DNA from: Nitrospirota bacterium
GTDB lineage: Bacteria; Nitrospirota; Thermodesulfovibrionia; Thermodesulfovibrionales; UBA1546
DNA: 31,394 nt
Assembly: GCA_016208915.1 (NCBI GenBank)
Contig: JACQXE010000001.1
Coordinates: forward strand, 1 to 31,394
Direction: 5' to 3'
Shown here: in pieces, positions 8,928 through 31,394 of the stretch
How the letters are laid out: each line of letters starts with the position of its first letter
Position numbering within the stretch: the first letter of the stretch is position 1
Position numbers and translations under genes: made by a program
Notes under the pieces: generated by a model
The model's database searches: none
The model's input: the letters and a program-made list of their open reading frames with translations, nothing else
What the model was told of the DNA's origin: nothing

Positions 8928-9288
8928 AATATGTTGCTGATGCCGAATCCGATTCCCATACTGTAACAGCAGACATCTGGACATGCTCGTTTTGAAGCTT
9001 TTTGTTCATTGAATCATAAATCCATTTAGCTACATTTTCTGACGATGGATTTTTTTCTGTGAAAGGGAATATATCATTCAAAAACGAATGATCCAGCGGC
9101 TCTAAAATCTCGTTCTGAAGTTTTTTCAGATCATGGAAATCGATTGCTATATCTATATCATTGAGTCTTTCAGCCAATACATGCACCTGAACTTTCCAGT
9201 TATGCCCATGCATCTGTTCGCATTTTCCTTTGTATCCTCTCAATTGATGTGCAGCAGAAAAGGTTGTCTCCACCATTAGTTCAAACAT
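8917..9288 (-). CDS. queD: 6-carboxy-5,6,7,8-tetrahydropterin synthase (QueD)
   Basis: 123 aa with the Zn-binding CxxxHGH motif (CEQMHGHNW) and EXXH context typical of QueD/PTPS. Confidence 0.85.
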   Translation of the reverse strand: MFELMVETTFSAAHQLRGYKGKCEQMHGHNWKVQVHVLAERLNDIDIAIDFHDLKKLQNEILEPLDHSFLNDIFPFTEKNPSSENVAKWIYDSMNKKLQNEHVQMSAVTVWESDSASATYYEG

Positions 9289-9316
9289 ATAAGTATCCCT
9301 GCCTCCTTATTCCGTA

Positions 9317-9838
9317 TCACTTGGTCTTTTTAAATATCGATATGTACGGAAGGTTTCTGAATTTGTTGTCGTAATCGAGACCGTAACCTACCACATATTC
9401 ATTTGGTATCTCGAAGCCTACATAGTCTATCGGCACTTCTACCACTCTTTTCTCTTTCTTATCGAGAAAAGCGCATATTTTAAGACTCCTTGGACCCCTT
9501 GCGAGCACCCTCTCTCTTATATAATTGAGAGTTATGCCTGAGTCAATAATATCCTCTATCAGAAGCACATCTTTGTCTCTTATGTCTTCCCTTATATCGT
9601 AATAGACCTTAACTTCTCCTGTCGTGCTTGTTTTCAGATAGCTTGAGGCTATTATAAAGTCAACAGACAGGGGAACGTTTATCATCCTGACAATATCAGA
9701 GTAAAACATAAACGCTCCCTTCAGTATACCAACAGCCAGAAGATTCTTACCTTCATAGTCCGCAGATATCCTGTCAGCAAGTTCTCTTACTCTGTTCTGA
9801 AGCTGTTCGACTGTGAAAAACGGCTTTTCTATTACCAT
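9317..9838 (-). CDS. hpt: Hypoxanthine-guanine phosphoribosyltransferase
   Basis: PRPP-binding motif VLLIEDIIDSGITL; 173 aa. Confidence 0.9.
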   Translation of the reverse strand: MVIEKPFFTVEQLQNRVRELADRISADYEGKNLLAVGILKGAFMFYSDIVRMINVPLSVDFIIASSYLKTSTTGEVKVYYDIREDIRDKDVLLIEDIIDSGITLNYIRERVLARGPRSLKICAFLDKKEKRVVEVPIDYVGFEIPNEYVVGYGLDYDNKFRNLPYISIFKKTK

Positions 9839-9862
9839 TGCATCCTCCTCGTCTTTAACTTT

Positions 9863-10888
9863 TTAGTCCGAGACAAAGTGTATCTTCAGTGTGGTATCGC
9901 CCATTTGTATTATATCACCGCTGGACAACACAACTTCTTTAACCTCTCTACCGTTTACAAAAATGCCATTTATACTGTCCAGATCCCTGAGTATAATCTG
10001 ATTTCCCGAAACCTCAAATAATGCGTGTCTTTTTGAGACTGTCATATCCCTGATTCTGACATCAGCATCTCTCCGGCCTATTGTAAACGGCAGGGGGATA
10101 TTAAACTTATTGCCCTTTTGAGGTCCTCCTGTAATCTCAATCCTTATTCTCTTCGGCCCTTTTTCTGCCGGTTGTATCTTAGGCTGTTGCTCAGCCTGCG
10201 TGGGCTGGAGCGGCGTGACGGCGTCTTCAGATTTCACAGGGTTTGCAGCAATCAATGAGCTGATCGCACATGAATCATCTGCCTCAAGGGTTGTAATATC
10301 ACTATAAACCAGCACATCTACCAGCGTTTTATCAGAAGGATATGCATAAAAAAGCATCTGTTCCCTTACAGATTTCTCATCCTGCCTGACAGCTGTATCT
10401 GCAAAATGCGCCATCTTTGGTTCCCCTGAATGAATATAAAAAAAATTGTGCATATTGTTCTTTCTAAGGACAATAAAAGCCGATATGCTTTCATTCTTAA
10501 TCTTCATAAGAATATTTTCAAGATCAATAATATCCGTTGTTACTCTTGAAGAAGGTTCCTTTTGAAAAAATACGAGCATCCCTTTGAACAATACGGGATC
10601 TGTTTTATAGAGAGAAATCATACTTTGTTTTTTATCCGAAGATATGTCTTTCAGAAAATCTTTTATGCTGAGATTCACCGGTCTGCTGTTTGAAATGAAA
10701 CCTGCTGCATATGCATCTCCCATAAGACAAAACAGAAAATATGCGGCCTCTGGCTCATCAATTTTTAATATGCCTGTAAACAGTCCGTCTGCCCTGTTTA
10801 TCTCGTCTGTAATGAGATTAAAAACTTCAGCTGTATAGCGTTTGTCTTTCAATAGAACATGACCTTCAGAAAAAACCTCTTTTATCAT
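9863..10888 (-). CDS. FHA-domain protein with an uncharacterised ~240-aa N-terminal domain
   Basis: C-terminal FHA signature (GRRDADVRIRDMTVSKRHA...NGIFVNG); N-terminal part has no motif I recognise. Confidence 0.7.
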   Translation of the reverse strand: MIKEVFSEGHVLLKDKRYTAEVFNLITDEINRADGLFTGILKIDEPEAAYFLFCLMGDAYAAGFISNSRPVNLSIKDFLKDISSDKKQSMISLYKTDPVLFKGMLVFFQKEPSSRVTTDIIDLENILMKIKNESISAFIVLRKNNMHNFFYIHSGEPKMAHFADTAVRQDEKSVREQMLFYAYPSDKTLVDVLVYSDITTLEADDSCAISSLIAANPVKSEDAVTPLQPTQAEQQPKIQPAEKGPKRIRIEITGGPQKGNKFNIPLPFTIGRRDADVRIRDMTVSKRHALFEVSGNQIILRDLDSINGIFVNGREVKEVVLSSGDIIQMGDTTLKIHFVSD

Positions 10889-22592: not shown

Positions 22593-23066
22593 ATGCAGAG
22601 AGTCCCGATAACACGCAATGGCTATCAGAAACTTCAGGAAGAGCTCGAGAGGCTACTGAAAGTTGAAAGGCCGCAGATTATAAAGGCAATTGCAGAGGCG
22701 CGTTCACACGGCGACTTATCTGAGAACGCAGAATACCATGCTGCAAGGGAAAAACAGTCGTTTATAGAAGGAAGGATTAATGAACTCCAGTCAAAACTAT
22801 CGCTTGCAGACATAATTGACACATCCAAGATAACCCAGTCAACCGTCGCATTTGGTGCAAAAGTCAAGGTACTGGATATCCAGGCAGATGAAGAATATTC
22901 TTTCACGCTTGTAGGTCCTGATGAGGCAGATGTGAAAAGCGGAAAAATATCAATAAGTTCTCCTGTCGGCAGAGCCTTGCTCGGCAAAAAGACAGGAGAT
23001 ACCGCAATCATCAAGGCGCCTGCAAGGACAATGGAATATGAAATATTAGAGATAAACTTTGAATAA
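22593..23066 (+). CDS. greA: Transcription elongation factor GreA
   Basis: RPQIIKAIAEARSHGDLSENAEYHAARE and C-terminal FKBP-like domain. Start at MQRV with AAAGGAG RBS; the upstream in-frame ATG is rejected. Confidence 0.9.
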   Translation: MQRVPITRNGYQKLQEELERLLKVERPQIIKAIAEARSHGDLSENAEYHAAREKQSFIEGRINELQSKLSLADIIDTSKITQSTVAFGAKVKVLDIQADEEYSFTLVGPDEADVKSGKISISSPVGRALLGKKTGDTAIIKAPARTMEYEILEINFE

Positions 23067-23095
23067 ATACATAAGAAAGATTACTTTTATCAGCT

Positions 23096-24537
23096 ATGTC
23101 TAGTCGAATTGAAGATATTGATTATTCTATAATTCCTGAAGAATCAACCCCAATGTATAGAATCCACAGATACTGGGGAAGAAAACCATGGAATATTTTT
23201 GGTAAATACATTGAAAAATACACTTCCGAAGGGGATATCATCTTAGACCCTTTTTGTGGCAACTCAAAAGGAAAGTAATCGGTATTGATCTTAATCCAAT
23301 GGCTACTTTCATTACTCGTCAAATGATCTCTTATGTTGATTTGAGGGATTTCGAAGATGCATTTAAAAATATTTTGGAAAATGTAAAAAAAATATTTAAA
23401 GAAAATTATTCAACAAAATGTAAGAAGTGTGGTGCTAAGTCAGAGGTAATACATTTCAGGTGGGAAAGGCAAGAAAAAGATATAAAAATAAAAAGATTAA
23501 AAGATGCAGGAGAAATAAATCGCAATTTAGTCTCTATAACATATAAATGTGAAAATTGTGGATATGGAAGTGATAAACCTGAAAAATATGATATAGACGT
23601 CTCTACGCAGCCATATTTAAACAATTCACCAAAATATCTCATTAATAAGAAACTACAATTAAAGCACAGTTCAGAAGCAAAGGATTATTTTGATTTATTC
23701 ACCCCTAGAAATTTATTTTTTTTATCTGTTATATATGATGAAATTAATAAAATCAGTGTCAGCAAAATTAAAGATTTGATGAGGTTAGTTTTCTCGTCCT
23801 GTCTTACACAAAGCAGTAAACTTATTATGTATACCGAGAAAGGTATACGCCCTGAAGTTAGTGAACGAAGTAAAAGCTGGATAGCCACACGATTTCACAT
23901 CCAGAGAAATTATCTTGAAAAAAATCCATTAATTAATTTTAAAAACAGCTTTGAAACCGTATTTAAAGCAAAAAAGGAAAGTAATAATTTGATTGAAGAT
24001 TGTATCTTTGTTGATACATTTGAAGATCTATTTAAGGGGAAGGGGAATGTTTTGATTATAAATGATTCTGTCGATTATATAAATGATATCCCGCCAGAAA
24101 GTATTGATTATGTTATTACAGATCCACCATTTGTGAAAGATGTTAATTATATCGAGTTATCACAGCTATGGTTATTCTGGTTATTTAACAAAGACCCAGA
24201 TTTTGAAAAGGAAATCAGATGTAAAGAATCTATGGATAATTATAAAAAGCAAATGATTAACGTCTTTGAAAAGATTAAAAAGGTACTTAAAAAAGATAAA
24301 TACCTAACAGTTACATATCGGGCTGATGAACCTAAAATGTGGGACACAATGATACAATGCCCAACCGAAGCTGGTTTCTACTTAACAAAAATAGTGCCAC
24401 ACGCAATCGGGCATAGTATCGGAGCAAGGTATCGGCAACTTATGGCAAAAGGAACACCTGATATGGCAGAAGAAAAACATAAACTAATTCTTGGTTATTT
24501 CTACTTAACGTTTAATAAAAAAGAGCAATTAACTTGA
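23096..24537 (+). pseudogene. Frameshifted alpha-class (motif I...motif IV) N6A/N4C DNA methyltransferase with an internal Cys4 zinc ribbon
   Basis: ORF 23096-23278 ends ...YWGRKPW...ILDPFCGNSKGK*. ORF 23254-24537 continues in the -1 frame with VIGIDLNP... (AdoMet motif I split at the AAAAGGAAAG run). CKKCG...CENCG zinc ribbon; DPPF motif IV (VITDPPFVKD). Lower GC than flanking genes. Confidence 0.7.
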
Positions 24538-26492
24538 TGTCAAATAATTCTAATTTAAATCAAAGAATAATACAGAGAGCTGCGCAGATTATCGAAAAGC
24601 GGCAAGAGCCTACTCCTTTAATTTTTATCCTAATGAATCTTTACGAAAAATTGACACCGCCAGAAATAAAAGCATTATCTGTTCACAATATCATAGAAGA
24701 GCTCAATAAAAGTGGACGTCTCCAAGGAACAACTGAGTATAAAGAAAATCCCTTGTGGCAAAAATGGACACTGAAAAACGTGAAATTTGATAGGAAGAGA
24801 GCTTTGGAAACAATTATAAAAAATGAATTGGAAGAATTATTGCTTTATGAAAATGAGACAACAAATTTCTATATTAAGCATATCTCGAGTACTTTCAAGG
24901 GCGATCTAATAGTCAGTGCTCAAAGAGTTAAGAGGTTATTGGAACAAATTGCAAAAGCGGATGAGAAAACAGGAATCTTGGAACTTACAAAAAATAAGGG
25001 CAAAATACTTCATAGGAAAAGAGAAGAGACAATTAATAATCTGGCAGAATTAGGAAGAAAATATAAGTTCCATTCATTAAACGTTAAGAAAAAGATAGAC
25101 ATGCAATATGATGAGCTTAGTTTGGCGATTAAGAAGTTTATACCTAGAACATCAAAAAGACTCGGTGAATCTGTTCTGTTTTGGTTAAAAAATAACAAGC
25201 CTGTCATAATGTACTACATAACATTAACAGGTAGAAAACCAAATGTTGACATAAAAACCGTCAGTAAAGCATTGTCTAACAATATTGTAGGTTTTCAGAA
25301 AATTATGATTTTTCCTTCTAAATTTGAAAAATATTTCAAAAGGATGAAAGAACATTGGGATTATATTTTGCTTGAGAATATAGAAAAAGTAATGAAAGAA
25401 AAGAAAGTTATAGATAAGATGCCCAGATTAAAATACACAAAAAAAGAACATGGGAAGCCAAAGAAAAGAGTAATGGCAACCGTTATTAAAAATATCCCTT
25501 ACCAAGTAGGATCAGAAATCAAATATTTTCGCTTGGTGTTAGAAAAACCACATATCCAACAGAATGCTAAACCAGGTCAATTCATAAATATTTTATGTCC
25601 AAGTCACAATTCGGTGAAAAAACATCTTGTTTTTGATACAGAAGAAACATATAAAAAATATCTAAAAGAAAAAAAGGAACTGTACACACCAAAACCTTTA
25701 TTGCGAAGACCAATAAGTATTCATAGGATTTATTATGAAGGCTTTGACCCAAGAACTTTGAAAGGGAAAAGACAATTGCCTCCAGAAATTAATCAGTATC
25801 TGGAAGGTGGAATAAGAAATCGTTTTGATATACTTGTTAAAATTGTTGGCAAGGGAACTAAAGCATTATCAGAAGTAAGAGAAGGAGATAAGCTTGATAT
25901 TATCGGGCCTCTTGGCCATGAGATTAATATAAATCCTTCACTTAAAAAAGCATTATTAGTGGCTGGTGGCATTGGCATTGCCCCTCTTTATGCGTTGGCT
26001 GAAAAACTGAGATGGGAGAATAAAAATGTCGTCCTCTTTTTGGGCACATTTGCAGAGCAAGACCTTAAAATGCTAGATTCTGGTTATACGATGGGTAATA
26101 TTGAAGCCAAAGAACTAATCAAAGAGTTTGAAGAAATGGGAATTGAAGTAAAGATATGTGCACAGGAAAAAGGATATAAAGGCCTATTTCGAGGAAAAGT
26201 TCATGAGATTTTCAGAAATTACATAGAAAAAAATAAAAACATTAAAGATTTCTCATCAAACACGGAAGTTTTTTCATGTGGACCAAAAGAAATGTTAAAA
26301 GAAATTGTAAAAATAGCGACGGAGTTTAATTTGCCACATCAGGTTTTACTAGAAGAAAGAATGGGGTGCGGGCTGGGTGTTTGTCTTTCTTGTGTATGCC
26401 CGACAATAGATAACAATGAAATTAAATACAAACAAATTTGTATGGAGGGACCAGCTTTTAATGCAGAAGAAATTGCCTGGGATAAATATTGA
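24537..26492 (+). CDS. Fusion protein: uncharacterised ~310-aa N-terminal domain plus divergent PyrK-like FAD/NAD-binding [2Fe-2S] reductase domain
   Basis: ATG overlaps the MTase TGA (TGATG). C-terminal 340 aa carry KPGQF, RRPISI, GGIGIAPL and CGLGVCLSCVC...C, as in the dihydroorotate dehydrogenase electron-transfer subunit, but with two ~25-30 aa inserts. The N-terminal domain has no motif I recognise. Confidence 0.7.
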   Translation: MSNNSNLNQRIIQRAAQIIEKRQEPTPLIFILMNLYEKLTPPEIKALSVHNIIEELNKSGRLQGTTEYKENPLWQKWTLKNVKFDRKRALETIIKNELEELLLYENETTNFYIKHISSTFKGDLIVSAQRVKRLLEQIAKADEKTGILELTKNKGKILHRKREETINNLAELGRKYKFHSLNVKKKIDMQYDELSLAIKKFIPRTSKRLGESVLFWLKNNKPVIMYYITLTGRKPNVDIKTVSKALSNNIVGFQKIMIFPSKFEKYFKRMKEHWDYILLENIEKVMKEKKVIDKMPRLKYTKKEHGKPKKRVMATVIKNIPYQVGSEIKYFRLVLEKPHIQQNAKPGQFINILCPSHNSVKKHLVFDTEETYKKYLKEKKELYTPKPLLRRPISIHRIYYEGFDPRTLKGKRQLPPEINQYLEGGIRNRFDILVKIVGKGTKALSEVREGDKLDIIGPLGHEININPSLKKALLVAGGIGIAPLYALAEKLRWENKNVVLFLGTFAEQDLKMLDSGYTMGNIEAKELIKEFEEMGIEVKICAQEKGYKGLFRGKVHEIFRNYIEKNKNIKDFSSNTEVFSCGPKEMLKEIVKIATEFNLPHQVLLEERMGCGLGVCLSCVCPTIDNNEIKYKQICMEGPAFNAEEIAWDKY

Positions 26493-27438
26493 AAAGCCTG
26501 ATTTAAGCGTAGAGATTGCAGGCATCAAGATGAATAACCCTATTATGATTGCATCTGGAACCTTTGGTTATGGTACAGAATTCTCTGAAGTTGAAGGTTT
26601 TTCTCATGATGAAGTAGGTGCAATTGTATTAAAGGGAACCACCCTTAATAAAACACGGGGGAATCCTATTCCGAGAATTGCTGAGGTAGACTGCGGGATT
26701 ATCAACTCCATCGGGTTGCAAAACCCAGGTATTGATTTTGTTCTGAAAAATTATATTCCTAAGTTACGTCAATATAAAACTAAAATTATTCTGAACATAG
26801 CAGGCTACAGCGAGGACGAATACAAAGAAATTGCTAAAAGAATTAATGACGTAAATGGTGTTCATGGAATAGAAGTAAATATCTCTTGTCCAAATATAAA
26901 AGAAGGTGGAATGCAGTTTTGTTTGGATCCTAAAATGACATTTAGAGTTATTGAAAAGATTAGAGGTGAGACAAAATTACCTCTTATAGTAAAATTATCA
27001 CCCAATGTAACTGATATCGTACAGATAGCCAAAGCTGCTATCGAAGGTGGCGCTGATGCCTTATCTTTAATAAATACTGTTACTGCTATGGCAATAGATA
27101 CTAAAACAAAAAGACCTAAATTGGGAGCTAATTTTGGTGGATTGTCAGGACCTGCAATAAAACCTATAGCTATACACAAAATATTCCAAACATATCAGTA
27201 TATAAGTCAATATGTGAAAGACAAAAAAATACCTCTGATTGGGATAGGTGGAATTGAAAGCGCGGATGATATCATTGAATTTATTCTTGCTGGCGCTAAT
27301 GCTGTTCAAATTGGCACCAGTACAATGATATATAAAACGACTATCGAACAAATTATTTCTGATATTGCAAATAGACTGTCAGAACTTAACGAGAAAAAAA
27401 TAAACAATCTCGTTGGAAAAGTAATTCTAAATACTTGA
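26461..27438 (+). CDS. pyrD: Dihydroorotate dehydrogenase catalytic subunit (class 1B)
   Basis: [36 protein letters not shown] and GANAVQIGT blocks. Start at the ATG (MQKKLPG...) overlapping the preceding gene by 32 nt; the ORF track begins at 26416. Confidence 0.85.
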
Positions 27439-27439
27439 G

Positions 27440-27592
27440 TTCATGCTGGCAGGGGCAACTGCAGTGGCTGTTGGAACTGCAAATTTTGTTAATCCCTATT
27501 CAACCATTGATATAATTAACGGGATAGAATCCTTTATGGAAAAGAATAATATAATAGATGTAAAAGAACTTATAGGAGGTTTAAGATGCTGA
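27440..27592 (+). pseudogene. pyrD: 3' remnant (~50 codons) of a second, resident-type pyrD, out of frame with and directly abutting the complete pyrD
   Basis: Translates to [50 protein letters not shown], a close match to the PyrD C-terminus. Higher GC than the upstream island. Its stop overlaps the RBS and ATG of the next gene. Confidence 0.7.
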
Positions 27593-28398
27593 CCCGTATG
27601 CCCCTGATAACTCTTACAACAGACTTTGGGTATAAAGATCCATTTGTAGGAATGATGAAGGGAGCGATATTTAATATAAACCCTTCTGCCCTAATAGTTG
27701 ACATAACCCATGACATAAATCCTTATAACATACGAGAGGCAGCGATAGCTGTTGATGTTAGTCACAGCTTCTTCCCTCCTACAACAGTTCACGTGGTTGT
27801 TGTTGACCCTGGTGTTGGCTCAAACAGACGGCCCATACTCGTTGTAACGGACCAGCATTACTTTGTAGGGCCTGACAATGGTGTGTTTTCGCTAATATAT
27901 ACTTCAAATAGCAGGACGCTTGATGTAAGACATATAATCTCAGAGCATTATTTTCTGCCTCAGAAAGGATCAACTTTTCATGGCAGAGACATATTTGCGC
28001 CAGTTGCCGCATGGCTTACTAAAGGGATAGAATCAGCCAAATTCGGTGACATTATCACCGACTATGTAACCCTGCCTTTCCCCTCAGTCTCAATGCCGAC
28101 AAAGACAACACATGAAGGAGAGGTTATCTACATAGATCGCTTTGGTAATGCAATAACCAACATAAAGTCCTCAGAAGTTGATGCGCTCTACAGCATTAAT
28201 CCTGAGGCAAAACTTAGAGTCTTGATAAAAGGCAAAAGGGTAGAGATCAAAAACTATTATTCCCAGGTTTCAGACAAAGAACTCTATGCATTAATAAACA
28301 GCTCAGGGTATCTTGAGCTTTTTGTTTACAGAGGGAATGCAGCTGGTGAATTCAATATAAAAACAGGGGATACTGTTGGTGTTATTCTTAACGTATAG
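27586..28398 (+). CDS. SAM hydroxide adenosyltransferase (DUF62 / SAM hydrolase family)
   Basis: [26 protein letters not shown] and FHGRDIFAP signature blocks; GGAGG RBS. Confidence 0.85.
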
Positions 28399-31161: not shown

Positions 31162-31394
31162 AAGGGTCAAGTCGCACGGCCTATTAGTACTGGTCAGCTG
31201 AATGCATTACTGCACTTACACCTCCAGCCTATCAACGTGGTAGTCTACCACAGACCTTTAGGTGGCTTACGCCACGGGAGACCTAATCTTGGGGTGGGCT
31301 TCACGCTTAGATGCCTTCAGCGTTTATCCTCTCCAGACATAGCTACCCGGCATTGCCATTGGCATGACAACCGGAACACTAGAGGTCTGTCCAT
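31162..31394 (-). rRNA. rrl: 23S rRNA, 3'-terminal ~230 nt (gene continues beyond the window end)
   Basis: The reverse complement matches the universally conserved 23S domain VI and 3' end (GTTGTCATGCCAATGGCA...GCTGAAGGCATCTAAGCG...GTTGATAGGCTGGAGGTGTAAGTGCAG...GTACTAATAGGCCGTGCGACTTGACCCTT). Confidence 0.9.

Follow-up and report, generated by a model that had tools for sequence, protein, structure and literature searches.

What is the domain of about 310 amino acids (aa) that precedes a PyrK-like reductase, in one open reading frame (ORF), in a Nitrospirota bacterium, and how did it come to be there? The ORF lies on the + strand at 24534/24537–26492 of a 31,394-bp contig from a metagenome-assembled genome (MAG) of this organism, and that whole contig is called the window below. 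It encodes 651 aa from its ATG and is entered in GenBank as MBI4683593.1, a 'hypothetical protein' of a Nitrospirota MAG. No stop codon separates its 313-aa N-terminal part, here called X (24537–25475, + strand), from the PyrK-like part, PyrK′ (residues 314–651; 25476–26492, + strand). The gene upstream is an N6/N4-type DNA methyltransferase (MTase) gene (23096–24537, + strand), and the gene that follows, that of PyrD′ (26461–27438, + strand), encodes the catalytic subunit of a class 1 dihydroorotate dehydrogenase (DHOD); we refer to these genes together as the cassette. We consider it likely that X is the degenerate endonuclease half of an ~800-aa single-chain restriction-modification (R-M) protein, the gene of which was joined at its 3′ end, in frame, to a paralogous pyrK.

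The fused reading frame and its relatives

The claim of a first-pass annotation of this DNA, that an N-terminal part of ~310 aa and PyrK share one frame without a stop, holds beyond the MAG, as the 651-aa ORF is seen in four Logan assemblies. Two of these (L006 and L007) are 100% identical to the window in DNA sequence and encode the exact 651-aa protein, independently assembled; the other two (L004 and L005), with 90–93% DNA identity, have the same 651-codon frame with zero indels. The open frame is also present in a JGI contig. The same annotation had left room for a sequencing error that hid a stop. It can be said in favor of such an explanation, in which a sequencing or assembly error erased the stop between two separate genes, that the window contig does hold one assembly-level error or variant, a 28-nt deletion in the MTase gene (see below). 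However, the identical frame in four independent Logan assemblies and the JGI contig, the two ~90%-identical strains that keep all 651 codons, and the lack of a start codon at the junction in relatives exclude an error of this kind for practical purposes. Estimated by the Nei–Gojobori method, the ratio of nonsynonymous to synonymous substitution rates (dN/dS) is 0.26 for X, 0.15–0.17 for PyrK′ and 0.17–0.23 for the MTase. X is under purifying selection and is a real, constrained coding region. We also note that L005 is a mosaic, L004-like at fusion aa 1–225 and 590–651 and window-like at aa 225–590, which points to recombination between strains that occur together.

Among 1.84 billion cluster representatives, an exhaustive HMMER scan with X recovered just two real relatives, P0011 and P0012, and both are cassette proteins. 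The former (650 aa, 63% identical) consists of X and PyrK′, and the latter (1119 aa, 40% identical) carries MTase, X and PyrK′ as a single chain. A third match, P0013, was set aside as spurious, being a eukaryote-like Ig-repeat protein, and a word-indexed homologue search with X gave zero matches. A metagenome scan with the X alignment added one more lineage (L011), and a search with PyrK′ added a further X-PyrK′ fragment (P0134), the X tail of which is recognized at Prob 98.2%. A contig scan with PyrD′ gave only relatives of 37–42% identity, and these have an ordinary PyrK of 261–265 aa.

The gene order in L009/L010 is greA, MTase (487 aa), X::PyrK′ (650 aa), PyrD′, a 67-aa DHO_dh fragment, and SAM_HAT (the SAM hydroxide adenosyltransferase gene). 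In L008 the 1119-aa triple fusion is followed by PyrD′, and in L011 the order is greA, MTase-X-PyrK′ (1104 aa), PyrD′, canonical pyrK (259 aa), canonical pyrD (312 aa) and SAM_HAT. The fusion, which is confined to a small set of bacteria resembling Nitrospirota, is kept across ~40% to 91% identity, and the synteny from greA to SAM_HAT is the same in lineages that are 40–63% identical. The cassette is a stable syntenic chromosomal feature and not a mobile R-M unit. The identity matrices of PyrK′ and PyrD′ agree on the grouping ((window, L009), L011), L008, which makes the triple fusion the parsimonious ancestral state, and we infer that the stop codon separating MTase from X arose later, in the window's clade.

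Could PyrK′ nonetheless be made separately? The first-pass annotation had recommended a check for an internal start at MATVIKN, and such a start is not borne out by the junction codons of six lineages: the position of that methionine (Met313 of the fusion) is occupied by Lys in L008 and L011 and by Tyr in L009, and ATG, GTG and TTG are all absent from 38 codons around the junction in L009 and L008. Because the internal Met is not conserved, the X-PyrK′ fusion is obligate. A GGAGGG Shine-Dalgarno sequence lies 11 nt 5′ of the PyrD′ ATG, and thus the organism uses such sites; none was found 5′ of X or 5′ of Met313. The MTase stop overlaps the ATG of the fusion in the window (TGATG), and in L004, L005 and L009 a TAA is followed after 4 nt by the X start. 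With stop and start this close and no Shine-Dalgarno sequence, X-PyrK′ is most likely translated by re-initiation, or coupling, after the MTase.

Ancestry and predicted fold of the N-terminal domain

In the window the MTase gene is split into ORFs at 23096–23278 and 23254–24537 (60 aa + 427 aa) by a 28-nt deletion after 23261, and GenBank annotates the frameshifted gene as a truncated 412-aa 'hypothetical protein' (HY755_00135). The 28 nt missing from the MAG contig (window 23251–23275, junction after 23261) are GCGGTGTTTCAGTAGCAGAGGCATTAAA. They are present in L006, which otherwise matches the window at 100% identity over 6360 nt, as well as in L004 and L005, and putting them back gives an intact 489-aa MTase with the motif I DPFCGSG. 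The lineage as such does not have the deletion, which is either an assembly error or a minority variant. Both pieces match Pfam N6_N4_Mtase and PADLOC MTase_II/PglXI, and the gene is intact, at 487 aa, in L004, L005 and L009. Motif I comes first (DPFCG..), and the protein also has a CxxC...CxxC zinc ribbon and motif IV (DPPF). The MTases of L004, L005, L009 and L011 and the repaired window gene have DPFCGSG and DPPF, and that of L008 has DSFSGSG and DPPF. The catalytic motifs of the MTase are retained, and purifying selection acts on it.

The first-pass annotation could place no motif in X, and family databases do no better: X (313 aa) has no match at E ≤ 1 in Pfam, NCBIfam or PADLOC, and its only two in PHROGs, at E 0.1–0.23, are unusable. 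The wider relatives of the MTase are more informative. These proteins, from many archaea and bacteria (e.g. P0018, P0020, P0030 and P0097), belong to the same MTase family at 30–36% identity and are mostly 800–850 aa long, with the MTase followed by ~340 aa that contain PF27126 (NmeDI_C). They resemble the cassette MTase in having motif I first, the zinc ribbon, DPPY/F and the same domain order. When a profile of the six X sequences was compared by hhalign with 48 of their C-terminal regions, the match had Prob 98.4% and E 6.8e-14 and spanned 303 columns, the full length; with 12 sequences it had Prob 96.6% and E 4.9e-10 (272–303 columns over both runs). The C-terminal ~340 aa thus align with the whole of X, including the ERGEPT/RQEPTPLIF (EPTPLIF) helix, the W-W/K-W motif, the helix-turn-helix region, the winged helix, LAEIGKK.GF/LAELGRKYKF, and the nuclease-like core β-strands ID.LW, FEVE.TT and V.IPEER. 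This profile evidence makes the whole of X a homologue of the C-terminal region that bears NmeDI_C in the ~800-aa MTase proteins. Those proteins stop after the NmeDI_C-type domain, whereas the cassette continues into PyrK′, and a stop codon cuts the MTase off from the rest in the window's clade.

The first-pass annotation had recommended looking for a PD-(D/E)xK or winged-helix fold, and elements of both are present in the predicted model. AlphaFold2 run on a five-sequence alignment gave a model of X with pLDDT 69 overall and 75–88 for residues 150–290 (a single-sequence run gave pLDDT 40 and was unusable). It consists of a helix bundle, three helices and a hairpin, and an alpha-beta-beta-beta-alpha-beta-alpha-beta portion. 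X is thereby predicted, at moderate confidence, to combine a winged helix (24795–24989, + strand; ~aa 87–151) with a PD-(D/E)xK or restriction-endonuclease-like fold, the alpha-beta-beta-beta-alpha-beta subdomain of which would occupy 24996–25406 (+ strand; ~aa 154–290). A Lys/Arg-rich linker with pLDDT <50 (25407–25475, + strand; aa 291–313), which contains Met313, leads into PyrK′. A Foldseek search of the model against the PDB gave weak winged-helix matches alone (E ≥ 0.13), and a profile of the NmeDI_C-type region found no solved relative among PDB sequences.

What X has lost is the active site. A D, an E, an E, a T and an R in the last three strands are invariant in 48/48 relatives, which keep the motif D...ExE...R, and in 6/6 X sequences the same five positions are V/G/I, Y, T/A, G/Q and K/T/S/E. 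The former active-site positions in the window are V213 (25173–25175), Y227 (25215–25217) and T229 (25221–25223); the structural residues W216, F226, P260 and W274 are retained. Since all three invariant acidic residues are replaced in the six X sequences, X should contain no working nuclease, and we conclude from these alignments that it descends from the endonuclease-type module of a single-chain MTase-nuclease protein and is nuclease-dead.

It was first suggested that X might be a cognate nuclease or specificity domain of the upstream MTase. The link to the MTase stands, as the two are fused in two relatives and the homology to NmeDI_C regions points to a nuclease ancestry, and what does not stand is the activity. 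In its full form this explanation makes X an active cognate restriction endonuclease or specificity subunit fused to PyrK, and it is attractive in that X comes directly after the MTase and is translationally coupled to it, has the predicted fold of a nuclease as well as the ancestry, and retains a winged helix that could read DNA. On the other hand, the catalytic acidic residues are gone from every X; the conserved acidic cluster at aa 275–289 lies in the last strand and helix, off the canonical PD-(D/E)xK position; and stable synteny over deep divergence is unlike active R-M systems. We regard an active nuclease as very improbable.

The namesake of PF27126 is R.NmeDI, a characterized 351-aa type II endonuclease of Neisseria meningitidis that cuts on both sides of RCCGGY (PMC2095814). 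X is linked to it via the MTase relatives that bear NmeDI_C, and the two are alike in size (351 vs 313 aa). R.NmeDI is free-standing, active and paired with a C5-MTase, whereas X is joined to a reductase and has lost the acidic residues.

About 60 residues of X are invariant across lineages down to 38% identity, and it has invariant motifs of its own, such as the acidic cluster WDYILLE(D/N)IEK. These bear on the idea that X is a neutral frozen accident, a functionless spacer kept since its removal would delete the translation start of an essential PyrK′. The loss of the catalytic residues agrees with that idea, as does the fact that PyrK′ alone has neither a Shine-Dalgarno sequence nor a conserved start, and more distant PyrK′ proteins have only short N-terminal extensions (412–469 aa) or none, which would fit progressive erosion. 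But the dN/dS values of 0.15–0.26, the strains without indels and the ~60 invariant residues make X too constrained for a spacer, and we think neutrality distinctly unlikely.

PyrK′, PyrD′ and the canonical pyrK-pyrD pair

The assignment of PyrK′ is based on Pfam and NCBIfam matches and on alignment with canonical PyrK, and its dN/dS is 0.15. PF10418 (DHODB_Fe-S_bind) matches aa 607–647 at E 2.9e-15, and PF00175 (NAD_binding_1) and PF00970 (FAD_binding_6) are just over the cut-off. The motifs RRPISI (FAD barrel), AGGIGIAPL (NAD fold) and CGLGVCLSC...C (the four Cys of the C-terminal 2Fe-2S site) are intact, and identity with three canonical PyrK sequences is 26–35%. Thus, the C-terminal 338 aa have the FAD barrel, NAD fold and Cys4 2Fe-2S cluster in common with the canonical PyrK of class 1B DHOD (Lactococcus lactis/Bacillus subtilis type, ~260 aa), and PyrK′ has the canonical placement directly upstream of a class 1 pyrD. 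Unlike canonical PyrK, it has the 313-aa N-terminal domain in the fusion and three inserts of 16–27 aa. The first-pass annotation had noticed two long inserts, which are real, and alignment to canonical PyrK adds the third; they lie at aa 355–381 (25599–25679), 399–425 (25731–25811) and 514–529 (26076–26123), all on the + strand, and are present in all cassette members. The best NCBIfam equivalog score of PyrK′ is 126.6 bits against a cut-off of 314, and the canonical PyrK of L011 is likewise below its cut-off (170 vs 219).

Similar inserts occur in the wider PyrK′ clade, in stand-alone proteins of 300–340 aa that lie beside pyrD in ordinary contexts (e.g. P0154 of L017). Since these proteins have no X or MTase, the inserts are no hallmark of the fusion. 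Two distant PyrK′ proteins of G+C-rich organisms, P0136 (L014, 3785–5194) and P0204 (L016, 6081–7319), have N-terminal extensions of 100–150 aa and no MTase upstream. These extensions were not counted as members of X, having only weak hhalign matches (Prob 20–34%) to its nuclease-like part, and they may be further-eroded relics.

PyrD′, the start of which overlaps the PyrK′ end by 32 nt, matches DHO_dh at E 3.9e-76 and NCBIfam NF005574 at 377 bits against a cut-off of 269, and by score it looks like an ordinary, bona fide class 1 DHOD. The 150 nt between it and SAM_HAT encode the last ~50 residues of a canonical PyrD, ending in GGLRC*; this remnant (27431–27592, + strand) runs into the SAM_HAT start at 27586, and it corresponds to the C-terminal end of canonical PyrD as found intact in L011, where the pair lies at 8971–10850. 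L009 holds a similar pyrD remnant with a DHO_dh match. The canonical pyrK-pyrD pair at this locus has thus been deleted in the window lineage and in L009, and the hybrid pair kept. With PyrD′ above its cut-off and the canonical pair gone, it is simplest to read X-PyrK′/PyrD′ as a working DHOD B, and it is probably the working DHOD of the organism. The suggestion that PyrK′ is not a standard housekeeping subunit is therefore only half right: it is a divergent paralogue with inserts, but together with PyrD′ it is probably the working DHOD.

Origin and setting of the hybrid

The explanation that we favor would run as follows. An ancestral gene encoded an MTase and an NmeDI-like nuclease module in one chain; its 3′ end became joined in frame to a paralogous pyrK, giving the triple fusion MTase-X-PyrK′ that is seen in L008 and L011; and a later stop codon split the MTase off in the window's clade. 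The 651-aa (75-kDa) protein would be the electron-transfer subunit of DHOD B, in which electrons would move from the FMN of PyrD′ through the 2Fe-2S cluster and FAD to NAD+. X would be a folded, non-catalytic appendage that persists because it is needed for the expression and folding of PyrK′, and it may still bind DNA via the winged helix, dock the MTase onto the DHOD complex, or contact the PyrK′ inserts.

Several points count against this explanation. PF27126 is absent among the precomputed Pfam matches of the 651-, 650- and 1119-aa products. The purifying selection on X and its own invariant motifs mean that X may have a positive function. As to the working DHOD, the analysis covered this one MAG contig, and another pyrD or pyrK elsewhere in the genome is possible; and the coexistence of both pairs in L011 suggests that PyrK′/PyrD′ once had a role distinct from that of the housekeeping DHOD.

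In another explanation the MTase, X, PyrK′ and PyrD′ would work together as a single complex that couples DNA methylation or DNA binding to a flavin/Fe-S redox module, and the fusion itself would be the point. It has several variants: control of methylation by redox state or pyrimidine supply, attachment of DHOD to the nucleoid, or a flavoenzyme directed to DNA that acts on a flipped-out pyrimidine. The three modules are in one chain of 1104–1119 aa in two lineages, each is under purifying selection, the invariant motifs specific to X could form an interface with the PyrK′ inserts, and the presence of canonical pyrK-pyrD alongside in L011 implies a non-redundant role, at least there. However, there is no evidence of any new chemistry, PyrD′ resembles an ordinary class 1 DHOD, the window lineage makes the MTase as a polypeptide of its own, and PyrK′ with the same inserts is found without X or MTase. 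We consider a functional complex rather unlikely. The more specific proposal of a dedicated machine is unlikely too, and a little more so; in it a flavin/iron-sulfur dehydrogenase would be coupled to the MTase and to a pseudo-nuclease that binds DNA, with methylation or DNA binding gated by redox state or pyrimidine flux, or with the DHOD-like subunit acting on a DNA pyrimidine presented by the MTase or X.

The surroundings of the cassette are those of an ordinary chromosome. Upstream neighbors include 6S RNA, RNase Y, YmdB, ETF, TldD, DksA, purC, a P-type ATPase, carbonic anhydrase, citrate synthase and GreA, and downstream are the SAM hydroxide adenosyltransferase (SAM_HAT_N/C) gene at 27586–28398, a LysM protein and the end of a 23S rRNA gene. 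SAM_HAT lies directly 3′ of the cassette in all three lineages with sufficient flank. G+C is ~0.30–0.35 over 23000–27500, that is, over MTase, X, PyrK′ and PyrD′ together, and 0.42–0.48 in the flanks. It is therefore the entire cassette that looks foreign in composition, and not the MTase alone, yet the position of the cassette is kept in distant relatives. A scan for promoters and terminators around the cassette gave nothing better than shuffled sequence. Near the start of the contig is the 6S RNA (222–410, + strand; Rfam RF00013, 93 bits vs a gathering score of 46), and a 117-aa ORF that overlies it (246–599) is without a family match and is probably not a gene. At the other end the 3′ end of the 23S rRNA gene (31163–31394, − strand; model positions 2697–2925) is cut by the end of the contig.

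A literature search on PyrK-methyltransferase fusions, PF27126 and N-terminal extensions of PyrK found nothing relevant. The parts are of known kinds (N6/N4 MTase, NmeDI-type nuclease fold and PyrK), and the combination appears not to have been described in the literature searched. The ancestry proposed here accounts for a protein annotated as hypothetical, and it shows that the Pfam NmeDI_C model misses the degenerate X branch. The arrangement also raises the question of a regulatory role, past that of a domesticated relic, for a DNA methyltransferase attached to a redox enzyme. On the explanation that we favor, an R-M gene would have been captured by core metabolism, its nuclease half dead and its methyltransferase half surviving, and the resulting hybrid, one or two polypeptides joined to the electron-transfer subunit of DHOD, would have displaced the canonical pyrK-pyrD pair in some lineages. 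The cassette would thus offer a concrete and datable series for the fixation of a selfish defense gene, from triple fusion through split to loss of the canonical genes.

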